Below, one piece after another: positions 26,702 to 38,604 of a stretch of 64,000 nt of DNA. The stretch spans positions 13,612 to 77,611 of the forward strand of contig CAVWCC010000013.1 in the NCBI GenBank assembly GCA_963753385.1, written 5' to 3'. The notes beneath the pieces were generated by a model that saw only the letters and a list, made by a program, of their open reading frames with translations, had not been told where the DNA came from and searched no databases. Each line of letters opens with the position of its first letter. Position 1 is the first letter of the stretch. The DNA is from an uncultured bacterium (lineage in GTDB: Bacteria; Actinomycetota; Thermoleophilia; Solirubrobacterales; 70-9). Both the position numbers and the translations under genes were made by a program.

Positions 26702-27619
26702 TCAGGCGGACGAACGGAGCGGCGGTATGACCTCGCTCGCCAGGATCTCGACCTGCTCACGATGACTGTCGACCGGCCAGAGGACGACGGTGTCGAAGCC
26801 GTCGTCGAGCAGGTCGCCCAGCGTCTCGACCCACCAGTCGGCTGATCCGGACAGCGGCTCCCCGGCCAGATACCCCACTGGCAGCTCCGAGCGGGCCGGC
26901 GGAGGCTCGTCGCCGATCAGGCCCTGCAGGTTGACGATGCGCCGGATCGCGCCCGGCTCGCGACCGGCCTTCTCGGCCGCCTCGTCGATGCGCCGGTTCC
27001 CGTCGCGCAGCTCGTCTTGGCTCATCACGCCGAGCGACGGCAGCCACCCGTCGCCCCTCCGGCCGACGAGCCGAAGCATCCGCGGCTTGAACGCGCCCAC
27101 CCAGATCTCGATCGGATGCGCGGGCCGCGGCCCCGGGCGCGCATCGTCCAGTCGGTAGTGCTCGCCGTCATACGAGACCGAACGCTCCTCGGACCACAGC
27201 AGCCGGATCACGTCGATCGCCTCCTCGAGGGCCTCGACGGCCTCGCCCGGAGTGTGCCGGGGCCCGCCGAAGCCGGCGATCACGTCGTGGTAGCCGCCGG
27301 CGCCAAGGCCCAACTCGAAGCGGCCGCCGCTCAGCACGTCGAGTGACGCGGCTGCCTTCGCCATGACGGCCGGCGGCCGCAGCGGCAGGTTCGCCACATC
27401 GGTGAAGAAGGAGATCCGCTTTGTCTCCGCGATGAGCGTCGGGATCAGCGACCACGTGTCCAGGAACCGCCGCTGGTAGGGATGGTCCTGGATGCCGAGG
27501 AGATCGACGCCGGCCTCGTCGGCGGCGCGGGTCGCATCCCGGATCAGATCGAGCGACTCGGTCGCGGGTACCAGCGAAACGCCGAAGCGCGGGTCGGTGG
27601 CGGCAGTCGCATCTGTCAT
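26702..27619 (-). CDS. LLM-class (luciferase-like) flavin/F420-dependent oxidoreductase
   Basis: ORF trimmed to the ATG at 27619, which overlaps the upstream stop (ATGA). FGVSLVP...LGIQDHPY...SGGRFELGLGAGG...IWVGAFKPRMLRLVGRRGDGWLP. Confidence 0.85.
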   Translation of the reverse strand: MTDATAATDPRFGVSLVPATESLDLIRDATRAADEAGVDLLGIQDHPYQRRFLDTWSLIPTLIAETKRISFFTDVANLPLRPPAVMAKAAASLDVLSGGRFELGLGAGGYHDVIAGFGGPRHTPGEAVEALEEAIDVIRLLWSEERSVSYDGEHYRLDDARPGPRPAHPIEIWVGAFKPRMLRLVGRRGDGWLPSLGVMSQDELRDGNRRIDEAAEKAGREPGAIRRIVNLQGLIGDEPPPARSELPVGYLAGEPLSGSADWWVETLGDLLDDGFDTVVLWPVDSHREQVEILASEVIPPLRSSA

Positions 27620-28539
27620 CCGGACTGACAGTAGACGTCGATCAGGTGCAGGTAGCGCCCGGCGATGGTCGATACGGCTTCGTCGCGGCCGATCTGGCCC
27701 GCCAGATTCGCCGCGACCGCGTCCCACCAGATCGTCCGGCCAACGGCAAAGCCGCCGAAGCCCTCGACCGGCGCGGCGACCCGGAGCCAGTGCTCGACCC
27801 TCGACTCGTCGGCGCCGCGTCCGAGGATCAGGCACCGGACCTCGTCGCGTCCCTCTCGCCGACACGTCGCGGCGACCAGCTCACACCCGGAGCGATCCTC
27901 GATCCCCTCGATCTTCCAGACCGCGGGCTCGATGCCGGCGTTCTGCAGGTCGGCGACCGCCCGGGAGACCAGCTCCGGGCGGAGCTCCGCGTCGAAGCGG
28001 CCCGGATCGTTCTCCACGCTGCGCAGCTGATCCGGCGTGGGGGGGACCAATAGTTCGAAGAGGAGTTCGCGTCCCGCCTCGCGCAGCCAATGGGAGAGTC
28101 GCGCCAGGCGCTCGACTTGACGGCCATTCAGGTCAGCATCGCCGTTGGGGTTGAAGCGCACCAGCGTCTTCACGAGCTCGGGCTCGAATCGCTCGATGTG
28201 GGCCTCGAAGTCGGCGTCGTACTCGAGCTGGAACTCGGCCTGGCCCGAGCGCTCCGCCGCAACCGCCGCAACGATGTCCGGCTCCGCCCGCGCGAGCTCG
28301 AGCACCTCGCCGCCGTATTCCTCGTCGACCAATAGACCCGGGACGCCCACCCCGTCGAGTGCACCGCGTGCCCGAAGCAGGCCGTCGTAGATCGTCAGCT
28401 TCGCCTCGGCGATCCTGAGTGCGTCCTGCGGCTTGGGCTCTCCCTCTATGCCGAAGAGGGGACGGATCGAGCGCCGATGGTCGAATGCGAGCAGAAAGAG
28501 CGGAAGTGGCGGTTGTCGAGCCAATTCGCTCACATTCAA
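27616..28539 (-). CDS. DUF2090 / class I aldolase-like TIM-barrel protein (IolC-C-terminal / tagatose-bisphosphate-aldolase-like)
   Basis: 307 aa with a TTG start. LFLLAFDHRRS...LVDEEYG...VKTLVRFNP...VWKIEG...CLILGRG. The fold-level call is more certain than the substrate. Confidence 0.65.
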   Translation of the reverse strand: MNVSELARQPPLPLFLLAFDHRRSIRPLFGIEGEPKPQDALRIAEAKLTIYDGLLRARGALDGVGVPGLLVDEEYGGEVLELARAEPDIVAAVAAERSGQAEFQLEYDADFEAHIERFEPELVKTLVRFNPNGDADLNGRQVERLARLSHWLREAGRELLFELLVPPTPDQLRSVENDPGRFDAELRPELVSRAVADLQNAGIEPAVWKIEGIEDRSGCELVAATCRREGRDEVRCLILGRGADESRVEHWLRVAAPVEGFGGFAVGRTIWWDAVAANLAGQIGRDEAVSTIAGRYLHLIDVYCQSG

Positions 28540-28556
28540 TCAGATTAGTTGCAGAG

Positions 28557-28575
28557 ATGTGCACGATTGTGTACG
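28557..28575. promoter_or_regulatory. Direct repeat TGTGCAC-n3-TGTGTAC in the divergent intergenic region (candidate DeoR operator)
   Basis: AT-richer 66-bp spacer between the aldolase-like gene (-) and the SIS gene (+). The two heptamers are spaced one helical turn apart. Confidence 0.3.
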
Positions 28576-36582: not shown

Positions 36583-36583
36583 G

Positions 36584-37771
36584 ATGCCCGGGATCAGGAT
36601 CGAGCGGGTGACGAAGGTCTATGGCGACGACGTCGTCGCGGTCGACGATGTCTCGCTCGAGGTCGCCGAGGGGGAGTTCATGGTCCTCGTCGGACCGTCG
36701 GGGTGCGGCAAGTCGACTCTCCTGCGGGCGATCGCCGGGCTCGAGAAGGTGACGCTCGGCAAGGTCTGGATCGGCGACGACGACGTGACGACGCTCGAGC
36801 CGCCGGATCGCGACATCGCGATGGTCTTCCAAAGCTACGCGCTCTACCCGCACAAGACGGTTCGCGAGAACCTCGCCTTCGGGCTCCGGCGCCGCAAGGT
36901 GCCGAAGGCGGAGATCGCCGAGCGCGTCGAGCGGATGGCGGGCATGCTCGGGCTGGGCGACCTGATGGAGCGCAAGCCCGCGGCGCTCTCCGGCGGCCAG
37001 CGCCAGCGGGTTGCAATGGGCCGGGCGCTGGTGCGCGAGCCCCGCGCGTTCCTGATGGACGAGCCGCTCTCGAACCTCGACGCGAAGCTCCGGACGAGCA
37101 TGCGCGGCGAGCTCGCGCGGCTGCACGAGCGGCTGCCGACAACCACCGTCTACGTGACGCACGACCAGGTCGAGGCGATGACGCTCGGCCATCGCGTCGC
37201 CGTTCTCCGCGACGGGGTGATCCAGCAGTGCGACGTTCCGCAGCGGCTCTTCGACCATCCCGCGAACGTGTTCGTGGGGGCATTCATCGGCTCGCCGGCG
37301 ATGAACCTGGTCGAGGCGCGCCTGGCAGGCGATGTCGTCGGCTTCGGCAGCACCAAGCTGCGGCTTCCGGGCGTCCATCCGCCTGCGGAGAGCGAGGTCG
37401 TCCTGGGGGTCCGGCCGACCAGCTTCGCGCTCGCCGGGCCGGGATGCGATCCGAGCTGGCCGACCCTGCGGGTTGGCCTCGACGTCGTCGAGGAGCTTGG
37501 CGCCGAGTGCAACCTGCTCTTCACGGTCGATGCGCCGCGCATCGCGACCGACGACGTGAAGGCAGCGATCGGGGGCGATAGCGGCGCCGACGAGGGCCGG
37601 CTCCTGGCCGACGATCGCCGAGCCCGTTTCACGGCCCGGATTCAGGGACGCCCGCCCGCAGGCGTGGGGGAGACGGTCGAGCTCGCGATCGATCCGGCGC
37701 AGGTGCACCTCTTCGACGGCGCGAGCGGACGCGCTCTCGTTCCCGGCTCGCAGGCGGTCAGAGCCGCATGA
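36584..37771 (+). CDS. ABC sugar transporter ATP-binding protein (MalK/UgpC/MsiK-like)
   Basis: Walker A GPSGCGKST, signature LSGGQRQRV, Walker B FLMDEPLSNLD, and a C-terminal regulatory domain. Confidence 0.95.
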   Translation: MPGIRIERVTKVYGDDVVAVDDVSLEVAEGEFMVLVGPSGCGKSTLLRAIAGLEKVTLGKVWIGDDDVTTLEPPDRDIAMVFQSYALYPHKTVRENLAFGLRRRKVPKAEIAERVERMAGMLGLGDLMERKPAALSGGQRQRVAMGRALVREPRAFLMDEPLSNLDAKLRTSMRGELARLHERLPTTTVYVTHDQVEAMTLGHRVAVLRDGVIQQCDVPQRLFDHPANVFVGAFIGSPAMNLVEARLAGDVVGFGSTKLRLPGVHPPAESEVVLGVRPTSFALAGPGCDPSWPTLRVGLDVVEELGAECNLLFTVDAPRIATDDVKAAIGGDSGADEGRLLADDRRARFTARIQGRPPAGVGETVELAIDPAQVHLFDGASGRALVPGSQAVRAA

Positions 37772-38604
37772 GGGCCATAGCGCTCGCTGCGGTTTCGGTG
37801 ATCCTGGTGCTCGGCGTCGGCGAAGGACGGCGTGCGGCCGCGGGGCCCGCCATCGCGCCCCCGCCCCCCAACGCGGGCTTCGACTACCAGATCGGCGGGC
37901 ACTATCCGCTGCCAGACGGCGTCACCGTCGTCTCGCGGGACTGGTTCGCGAGCCCGGCAGCCGCGGATCCGGTCTATTCGATCTGTTACGTGAACGCGTT
38001 TCAGACCCAGGCCGACGAGCCCGGCGTCGACCGCCCCGACGAGCGCTCCAACTGGCCGCGGTCGCTGATCCTCAACAGGCTCGGCGACGATCCGAAGTGG
38101 GGCGGCGAGTACCTCGTCAACGTCAGCACCGCAAAGAAGCGCAAGCGGGCGGCGCGCTGGGTGGCGCAGATGACCGATGGCTGCGCGGAGAAGGGCTACG
38201 AGGCGGTCGAGTACGACAACCTCGACTCCTGGACGCGCTTCGACGGCACCCCACTCGCGCGGAAGGTCCCGTTCGGCAAGGCGGACGCGCTGGCGTTCGC
38301 GAAGCGCATCGCCAAGCGCGCCCACGCGCGCGGCCTGGCGGTCGGCCAGAAGAACACCGCCGACGTGACCTCGGGGCAGGCGGAGAAGGCCGGATTCGAC
38401 TTCGCGATCGCGGAGGAGTGCGCGCGCTACCACGAGTGCGGCCGCTACCGCCAGGTCCACGGCGACGAGGTGATCGTCATCGAGTACCGGCGCAAGGACT
38501 TCAACCGGGCGTGCGACACCGTCGGCGACGAGCTCTCGGTCGTCCTGCGCGACCGGCAGGTGCGCAAGCCGGGGTCGCCGAAGTACGTGCACGACGCCTG
38601 CTGA
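37768..38604 (+). CDS. Secreted glycoside hydrolase family 114 (endo-alpha-1,4-polygalactosaminidase-like)
   Basis: Signal peptide, then ICYVNAFQTQ, GYEAVEYDNLDSW, AHARGLAVGQKN, FDFAIAEECARYHEC and VIVIEY. These match the conserved blocks of the GH114 family. Confidence 0.8.
   Translation: MRAIALAAVSVILVLGVGEGRRAAAGPAIAPPPPNAGFDYQIGGHYPLPDGVTVVSRDWFASPAAADPVYSICYVNAFQTQADEPGVDRPDERSNWPRSLILNRLGDDPKWGGEYLVNVSTAKKRKRAARWVAQMTDGCAEKGYEAVEYDNLDSWTRFDGTPLARKVPFGKADALAFAKRIAKRAHARGLAVGQKNTADVTSGQAEKAGFDFAIAEECARYHECGRYRQVHGDEVIVIEYRRKDFNRACDTVGDELSVVLRDRQVRKPGSPKYVHDAC

Follow-up and report, generated by a model that had tools for sequence, protein, structure and literature searches.

Streptomyces uses chitosan through a secreted chitosanase, CsnA, and the csnREFGHK cluster, which encodes a repressor, an ATP-binding cassette (ABC) importer, a GH4 glycosidase and a kinase (PMC6097792; PMC5635096; bioRxiv 10.1101/2023.09.20.558697). 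N-acetylgalactosamine (GalNAc), like galactosamine (GalN), is catabolized through the Aga pathway, encoded in E. coli by agaR-kbaZ-agaS-kbaY (PMC12118421). Endo-alpha-1,4-polygalactosaminidases of family GH114 include Ega3 of Aspergillus fumigatus, an enzyme of Pseudomonas sp. 881 and FsGH114; bacterial GH114 enzymes have resisted characterization, and galactosaminogalactan (GAG) contains alpha-1,4-linked galactose (Gal) besides GalN and GalNAc (PMC12054363). As sticky, cationic components of the matrix, GAG and Pel are relevant to fungal and bacterial biofilms, and their recycling in soil is essentially unknown. Here we analyze a locus at positions 26702–38604 of a 64,000-nt stretch of genomic DNA (hereafter, the window; contig CAVWCC010000013.1) with a G+C content of ~70%. 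The source is a metagenome-assembled genome (MAG) of 3.39 Mb and 89.5% completeness, whose nearest relatives are uncultured Solirubrobacterales/Thermoleophilia. Judging from its genes and their relatives, we consider it rather probable that the locus serves as an accessory cassette for the catabolism of galactosamine-rich polymers with alpha-1,4 linkages, namely, deacetylated stretches of GAG from fungi, Pel from bacteria, or polygalactosamine. We found in the open literature no described bacterial catabolic pathway for GAG, Pel or polygalactosamine, and no GH4 galactosaminidase or GalN kinase of this kind, in agreement with an earlier annotation made from the DNA letters (the sequence-only reading), which was aware of no fully described bacterial pathway of this composition.

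We infer each of the seven enzymatic steps of the route. A secreted GH114 enzyme (37768–38604; this and the other operon genes lie on the plus strand) would cleave the polymer to yield short, positively charged oligomers of GalN (step 1), to be imported by an acidic substrate-binding lipoprotein (SBP, 33512–34825), two permeases (34838–35749 and 35746–36582) and a MalK-type ATPase (36584–37771; step 2). In the cytoplasm, a MelA-like GH4 enzyme (32187–33515) would remove alpha-linked GalN and possibly Gal (step 3), PfkB kinase 2 (PfkB2, 31228–32190) would make GalN 6-phosphate (GalN-6-P; step 4), and a GlmD-like double-SIS enzyme (28606–29505) would convert the latter into tagatose 6-phosphate (tagatose-6-P) and ammonium (step 5). 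PfkB kinase 1 (PfkB1, 30254–31231) would then produce tagatose-1,6-bisphosphate (step 6), which a class I aldolase of the DUF2090 family, encoded on the minus strand (27616–28533), would split into dihydroxyacetone phosphate and glyceraldehyde-3-phosphate (step 7). The DeoR-family protein (29502–30254) is predicted to repress both divergent transcription units until an intermediate builds up. The sequence-only reading had proposed this succession of GH114, ABC importer, GH4, kinase, SIS enzyme, kinase and aldolase, and it is what comparative genomics predicts, given the recurrent cassette, the three lineages of GH114 and the interchangeable exits from the pathway described below.

Recurrence of the cassette

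We surveyed 80 loci with GH4 orthologues of 65–89% identity by tblastn with all proteins of the window. The order DUF2090 | SIS-DeoR-PfkB1-PfkB2-GH4-SBP-permease-permease-ATPase is repeated in 11 other loci from Thermoleophilia MAGs (L040–L047, L049, L050 and L058), with GH114 as the terminal gene in 10 of them and DUF2090 kept in nine. The gene arrangement is not due to chance, as the same 11-gene order is found in 11 other MAGs. The flanks of these cassettes are unrelated to each other and to those of the window, and none of the 11 cassettes contains, at an E-value of 1e-5, a homologue of the LLM oxidoreductase gene that adjoins DUF2090 in the window. Thus, the unit is an 11-gene accessory cassette that does not include the LLM gene. 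The LLM oxidoreductase had been counted as part of the divergent pair in the sequence-only reading; since none of the 11 related cassettes has it and the surrounding regions show no conservation, it is probably not part of the pathway. Besides its cassette, L058 carries a second GH4 paralogue (L058:11627-12925), 70% identical to that of the window, ~2.7 kb downstream of GH114.

GH114 and its link to the GH4/ABC module

The product of the last operon gene belongs to the GH114 family (PF03537, 164 bits) and is predicted to be a secreted endo-alpha-1,4-polygalactosaminidase-like enzyme, with a hydrophobic, signal-peptide-like N-terminus. Its closest match in the PDB is Ega3 (6oj1/6ojb; E-value of 6e-13, local identity of ~30% over 140 residues), a further one is 9ep6, deposited as 'alpha-galactosidase', and there is no match to the GH191 protein TM1410 (2aam) at E-values up to 1. 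Residues D150 and E216 correspond in the alignment to the nucleophile (Asp189) and the acid/base (Glu247) of Ega3, respectively, and are invariant in 11 homologues, as are several cysteines; the loop tryptophan of Ega3 is also conserved. The retained catalytic Asp/Glu pair and the invariant cysteines are what would be expected of an active extracellular enzyme. Moreover, no PelG was found in the source genome, at its 89.5% completeness, which argues against a biosynthetic role of GH114.

Within the surveyed loci, GH114 occurs next to the GH4/ABC module in three arrangements. Members of the first lineage, 68–76% identical to the protein of the window, come after the ATPase. Those of the second, 61–62% identical, are encoded directly 3' of GH4 in L062 and L081 (= G182), which represent a Gaiellales-type variant with another gene order. 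The third lineage (32–42% identity; PF03537, 198 bits) lies 3–4 kb upstream of GH4, the two being separated by genes for an IclR regulator, a short-chain dehydrogenase (SDR) and an Amidohydro_2 protein; loci of this group encode an ABC transporter nearly the same as that of the window (SBP 72–87% identical) and have neither SIS nor kinase genes. The presence of three GH114 lineages in three architectures argues for functional coupling of GH114 to the GH4/ABC front end; in the class as a whole, by contrast, a close GH114 is encoded in only five of 201 genomes.

The loci with the third lineage constitute a second type of cassette, seen at L052:5261-16851 and also in L051, L054, L055, L056, L060, L063 and L098, in which GH4 and the ABC genes come after those for the divergent GH114 (32–42%), an MBL-fold protein, IclR, SDR and Amidohydro_2 (possibly a lactonase). 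This second type may represent an oxidative, non-phosphorylative exit for sugars of the same polymer. L052 and the full cassette L040 belong to one MAG.

Kinases, aldolases and tagatose-6-P

PfkB1 is related to the 1-PFK/LacC/PfkB-II 'hexose kinase' family (TIGR03168, 184 bits versus a cut-off of 216) and is also matched by LacC and PfkB-II models, with scores below the LacC cut-offs (TIGR01231, 75.6 versus 409 bits; PRK13508, 93.7 versus 469 bits). Its gene context makes it a candidate tagatose-6-phosphate kinase. PfkB2 is a ribokinase/IolC-like protein (PfkB, 173 bits) that matches no NCBIfam model at cut-off and has generic ribokinases and fructokinases as PDB neighbours; it is encoded in every SIS-containing variant of the cluster and is a candidate galactosamine 6-kinase. 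The stand-alone DUF2090 protein (PF09863, 104 bits) is class I aldolase-like: it displays weak matches to the tagatose-bisphosphate aldolase model PRK12858 and to YihT aldolases, and its local motif WKIE pairs with YKVE. DUF2090 has been reported to be related to LacD and predicted to be an aldolase (PMC9007349). BLASTP detected no significant similarity between DUF2090 and the LacD-like aldolase encoded in the Gaiellales variant, the homology being at the profile level only.

In the variants, DUF2090 is replaced either by an aldolase of the DeoC/LacD family, found in Gaiellales, or by a GatZ/KbaZ-like protein. The NCBIfam matches of the LacD-like aldolase are solely to tagatose-1,6-bisphosphate aldolases (153 bits versus a cut-off of 184), and the GatZ/KbaZ-like proteins are recognized by Pfam with E-values between 1e-142 and 1e-165 and score 450 bits with the agaZ_gatZ model. 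Proteins of the latter family interconvert tagatose-6-P and fructose-6-phosphate (PMC11907403). We counted exit enzymes in 47 loci that have SIS, PfkB2 and a GH4 orthologue, including 12 in the gene order of the window. A class I aldolase is encoded in 36 of them, 35 of which also have a second kinase of the LacC/1-PFK type. The GatZ/KbaZ-like protein is present in four loci, none with an aldolase or a second kinase, and the remaining seven have the second kinase with no aldolase within reach. Replacement of the second PfkB and the class I aldolase by the GatZ/KbaZ-like protein is seen in L031, L032, L033, L038 and L039 (family f7: G156, G140, G171, G116 and G032), and points to an exit from tagatose-6-P to fructose-6-phosphate in these loci.

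Because the exits are complementary (kinase and aldolase, or GatZ/KbaZ), tagatose-6-P would be the intermediate common to the variants. In the simplest reading, all of them make tagatose-6-P, which is removed by a kinase and an aldolase or by epimerization. With tagatose-6-P as the intermediate, the sugar would be phosphorylated first by PfkB2, and tagatose-6-P by PfkB1.

The SIS enzyme

The SIS protein (PF01380) is a double-SIS protein of GlmD/GlmS-like type and a candidate for the enzyme converting GalN-6-P to tagatose-6-P. A profile built from its 13 orthologues was run against PDB chains and matched archaeal GlmD over its whole length (1e-32), followed by TM0813 (1e-25), GlmS (8e-20), NagB-II (6e-18), AgaS-type (4e-12) and FrlB-type proteins (3e-5; 3eua, the second weakest of 31 matches). 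E200 and H216 are equivalent to Glu488 and His504 of GlmS and are invariant across the orthologues as well as in AgaS, FrlB and GlmS. To our knowledge, all characterized members of the double-SIS group have phosphates of 2-amino-2-deoxy sugars or of ketosamines as substrates, and a member of this group that yields tagatose-6-P would therefore act on GalN-6-P. The sequence-only reading had described the protein as an amino-sugar 6-phosphate deaminase/isomerase of the AgaS/NagB-II type; its proximity to GlmD- and GlmS-like enzymes bears out the general assignment, whereas the AgaS-type one is not supported (TIGR02815, 16.9 bits versus a cut-off of 529). The SIS protein would thus work like AgaS without being its orthologue.

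The same profile bears on whether the locus could serve fructosamine or another Amadori compound through a kinase and a deglycase, an alternative that the sequence-only reading had left standing and that we regard as very improbable. Indeed, SIS, PfkB and ABC genes follow the logic of the frl genes, and the FrlD model gives a weak match, but at 75 bits versus a cut-off of 247. The FrlB-type structures are among the weakest matches of the SIS profile (3e-5 as against 1e-32 for GlmD), the protein is 22% identical to E. coli FrlB and matches no FrlB model of NCBIfam, and GH4, GH114, the second kinase, the aldolase and GatZ would be left unexplained.

The best SIS matches (GlmD, TM0813 and NagB-II) are glucosamine-6-phosphate deaminases, which is consistent with a locus for chitosan or other glucosamine (GlcN) glycosides similar to csnREFGHK, where GH4 would free GlcN to be converted through GlcN-6-phosphate into fructose-6-phosphate, followed by a private phosphofructokinase and aldolase. 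The overall design also resembles that of the cluster for chitosan oligomers in Streptomyces, which likewise includes a GH4 enzyme and a kinase (PMC6097792), and PfkB1 matches PfkB-II models. However, the GH4 protein falls into the alpha-galactosidase subgroup, the linked endo-enzyme is GH114 and not a chitosanase, and variants with GatZ/KbaZ or with an aldolase resembling tagatose-bisphosphate aldolases would make no sense for GlcN, so that we consider a GlcN-type locus quite improbable, though less so than the fructosamine one.

GH4 and the alpha-galactoside alternative

The GH4 protein (PF02056 and PF11975) is predicted to be a cytoplasmic alpha-glycosidase of the NAD+/Mn2+ type and scores 608 bits with the 'alpha-galactosidase' model NF011657, above its cut-off of 486. 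Its placement in the alpha-galactosidase (MelA) subgroup fits a galacto-configured sugar, and it is a candidate exo-alpha-galactosaminidase and/or alpha-galactosidase; as GAG contains both sugars, cleavage of both alpha-GalN and alpha-Gal would make sense. A GH4 enzyme within an operon for amino-sugar oligomers has a precedent in csnH (PMC6097792). The GH4 clades linked to SIS differ from MelA and from the sister clade without SIS at two positions, E17 (I/V in the others) and V129 (H in the others), which, as the clades were taken from a quick tree, serve as leads only.

Several observations weigh against assignment of the cassette to galactosamine-rich polymers. Over its full length, the GH4 protein shows 47% identity to E. 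coli MelA, with near-identical motifs, including GLCHSVQ, and may be a plain alpha-galactosidase; the new GH4 specificity for alpha-galactosaminides raised in the sequence-only reading is an inference, against which this identity counts. No bacterial GH114 has yet been obtained as a soluble recombinant protein (PMC12054363). The SIS protein and AgaS are not orthologous (21% identity to the E. coli enzyme, besides the model score given above), and the former has an arginine in place of the Schiff-base lysine of GlmS, GlmD and NagB-II (Lys603 in GlmS). No deacetylase is present, so that GalNAc residues would not be used. Furthermore, the related genomes are non-independent samples, for which reason no statistic is given for the recurrence of the cassette.

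The distribution of GH114 adds to these points. A close relative, L001, keeps GH114 alone in the syntenic region: L001:9058-11496, which corresponds to positions 37768–41415 of the window, has an 83%-identical GH114 between 3HCDH and TetR genes without the sugar operon, and shares with the window the HTTM operon upstream and the HDAC-like, KDD and BKACE genes downstream. This arrangement suggests that the cassette was lost while GH114 was retained, or that a rearrangement took place. In L002, GH114 is located in an unrelated context, and in the majority of the Gaiellales variants of the core cluster, GH114 is missing from the surrounding 10 kb. Across the class, a close GH114 is found in just five of 201 genomes and the GH4 orthologue in 22 of 201, and both are missing from the two other genomes of the genus. 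L001, L002 and this rarity had raised the possibility that GH114 is a mere chance neighbour, which was overturned by the survey of 80 loci.

The lysine-to-arginine substitution in the SIS protein was considered as evidence against deaminase function and set aside: E. coli AgaS has a glutamine at this position, and the substitution is therefore neutral. It nevertheless enters, together with the similarity of GH4 to MelA and its score above the alpha-galactosidase cut-off, into a different account of the locus, in which alpha-galactosides would be degraded through an ATP-dependent tagatose-6-P route, with a MelA-type GH4, phosphorylation of galactose at O6 by PfkB2, isomerization of Gal-6-phosphate by the SIS enzyme without deamination, and an accessory or unrelated GH114. 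Since the MAG, at 89.5% completeness, yielded no match to galactokinase (TIGR00131), such a galactose-based route stays the main rival, and the existence of a sister clade of GH4 that lacks SIS and GH114 is also in its favour. (A partial match to a GalT domain is located at C7:295875-296141 of genome G000.) By contrast, GH114 was independently juxtaposed three times, the nearest characterized relatives of the SIS protein all act on 2-amino sugars or ketosamines, and AgaS likewise has no lysine at the position in question. Moreover, we know of no galactose 6-kinase and of no SIS-type Gal-6-phosphate isomerase. Taken together, we regard the alpha-galactoside locus as unlikely, although the least unlikely of the alternatives, and favour a cassette for galactosamine-rich polymers.

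Importer, regulation and gene boundaries

The SBP (SBP_bac_8, SBP_bac_1) has a signal peptide with the lipobox LAAC and is very acidic, with an isoelectric point of 4.05 and 83 Asp+Glu versus 19 Lys+Arg residues, which makes it a candidate binder of cationic GalN oligomers. Both permeases (BPD_transp_1) are of the CUT1 type, the first being UgpA/GlcT/MalF-like, and the ATPase is of the MalK/UgpC type (ABC_tran and OB_MalK; PRK11650, 424 bits). The repressor candidate has the HTH_DeoR and DeoRC domains and is scored equally by AgaR and GlpR models (NF040755 AgaR, 204.5 bits versus a cut-off of 260).

The divergent control region (28534–28605) includes a candidate promoter of the plus-strand operon, TTGCAG-17-TACGCT, which is kept as TTGCAC-N17-TAGACT in seven related cassettes. 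A scan of this region for consensus promoters and terminators called nothing, and the proposal is based entirely on conservation. TTG 28549, which had been listed as the start of the SIS gene, is the first hexamer of the candidate promoter; alignment of orthologues led us to replace this start with ATG 28606. The conserved TCGCTCA.ATTCAATCA block upstream largely corresponds to the 5' end of the divergent DUF2090 gene (M-S-E...).

Families were assigned with Pfam and NCBIfam profile models, and all twelve genes listed in the sequence-only reading, ten co-directional and a divergent DUF2090/LLM pair, exist and belong to the families given there. As read from the sequence, seven of the nine junctions in the plus-strand operon are overlaps of 1–4 nt (GTGA, ATGA or TGATG), including an ATGA overlap of permease 2 with the stop codon of permease 1 and another of the GH114 start with the stop of the ATPase gene; at the remaining two, the genes are 12 nt and 1 nt apart. 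Relative to the open reading frame list, four start codons and one frame had to be revised. The start codons of GH4 and permease 2 were corrected to ATG 32187 and ATG 35746, respectively, and DUF2090 probably starts at GTG 28533. An open reading frame at 33577–34836 was ruled out as the SBP gene, being an Arg-rich wrong frame without a family match; the true SBP gene spans 33512–34825. On the minus strand, the gene for the F420-type LLM oxidoreductase (26702–27619; PF00296, with all F420 LLM models below cut-off) starts at ATG 27619, which overlaps the DUF2090 stop codon as ATGA, and this translational coupling is seen in this genome only.

Comparison with known systems

A stronger claim can be formulated, namely, that soil Thermoleophilia feed on GAG or Pel by a complete pathway that is not orthologous to Aga. 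It would comprise an active bacterial GH114 and four new enzyme specificities: the first GH4 exo-alpha-galactosaminidase, a PfkB galactosamine 6-kinase, a GlmD-like GalN-6-P deaminase and a stand-alone DUF2090 tagatose-bisphosphate aldolase. We advance this claim tentatively and lean slightly against its holding in full. If true, the cassette would provide a self-contained, testable route from polymer to triose phosphates, candidate enzymes for the production and analysis of GalN oligomers or for biofilm dispersal, and marker genes for the turnover of fungal necromass and biofilms by abundant uncultured Thermoleophilia. Exits that can replace one another (two kinases and an aldolase, or a GatZ epimerase) would represent a natural experiment in pathway modularity.

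In its design, the cassette parallels the Streptomyces chitosan system joined to a tagatose branch of the Aga type. Like the csn system, it would combine a secreted endo-hydrolase acting on a cationic amino-sugar polymer with a CUT1 ABC importer of oligomers, and both clusters include a cytoplasmic GH4 enzyme (a likeness at the family level), a sugar kinase and a repressor. The polymer is beta-1,4-GlcN in the csn system, whereas alpha-1,4-GalN is predicted here; the endo-enzymes are GH46, GH75 and the like versus GH114, the kinases are ROK-family versus PfkB, and the regulators are ROK (CsnR) versus DeoR. Furthermore, the csn cluster is devoid of a deaminase, a second kinase and an aldolase, all of which are predicted in the cassette.

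With the Aga pathway, the cassette shares a DeoR-family repressor and, as predicted here, an SIS deaminase/isomerase acting on GalN-6-P to give tagatose-6-P, phosphorylation to tagatose-1,6-bisphosphate and subsequent aldol cleavage; the GatZ/KbaZ family of the Aga pathway is itself found in some cassette variants. By contrast, uptake would proceed through an ABC importer of oligomers instead of a phosphotransferase system for monomers, and a separate PfkB kinase must therefore supply the 6-phosphate. The SIS enzyme is GlmD-like, with 21% identity to AgaS, the aldolase would be of class I (DUF2090 or LacD-like) and not the class II KbaY, and the glycosidases GH114 and GH4 are part of the unit, unlike in the Aga pathway. 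As for individual enzymes, the GH114 of the window and Ega3 belong to the same Pfam family, are extracellular and have the catalytic Asp/Glu and the loop tryptophan in common, but Ega3 is involved in polymer biosynthesis and remodelling, whereas the GH114 is encoded by the last gene of a predicted catabolic operon. Similarly, the GH4 protein shares the NAD and Mn motifs with E. coli MelA and differs in its context, which is that of amino sugars, tagatose-6-P and GH114. Overall, every catalytic component of the cassette is either non-orthologous to its counterpart in the known systems or differently specified.

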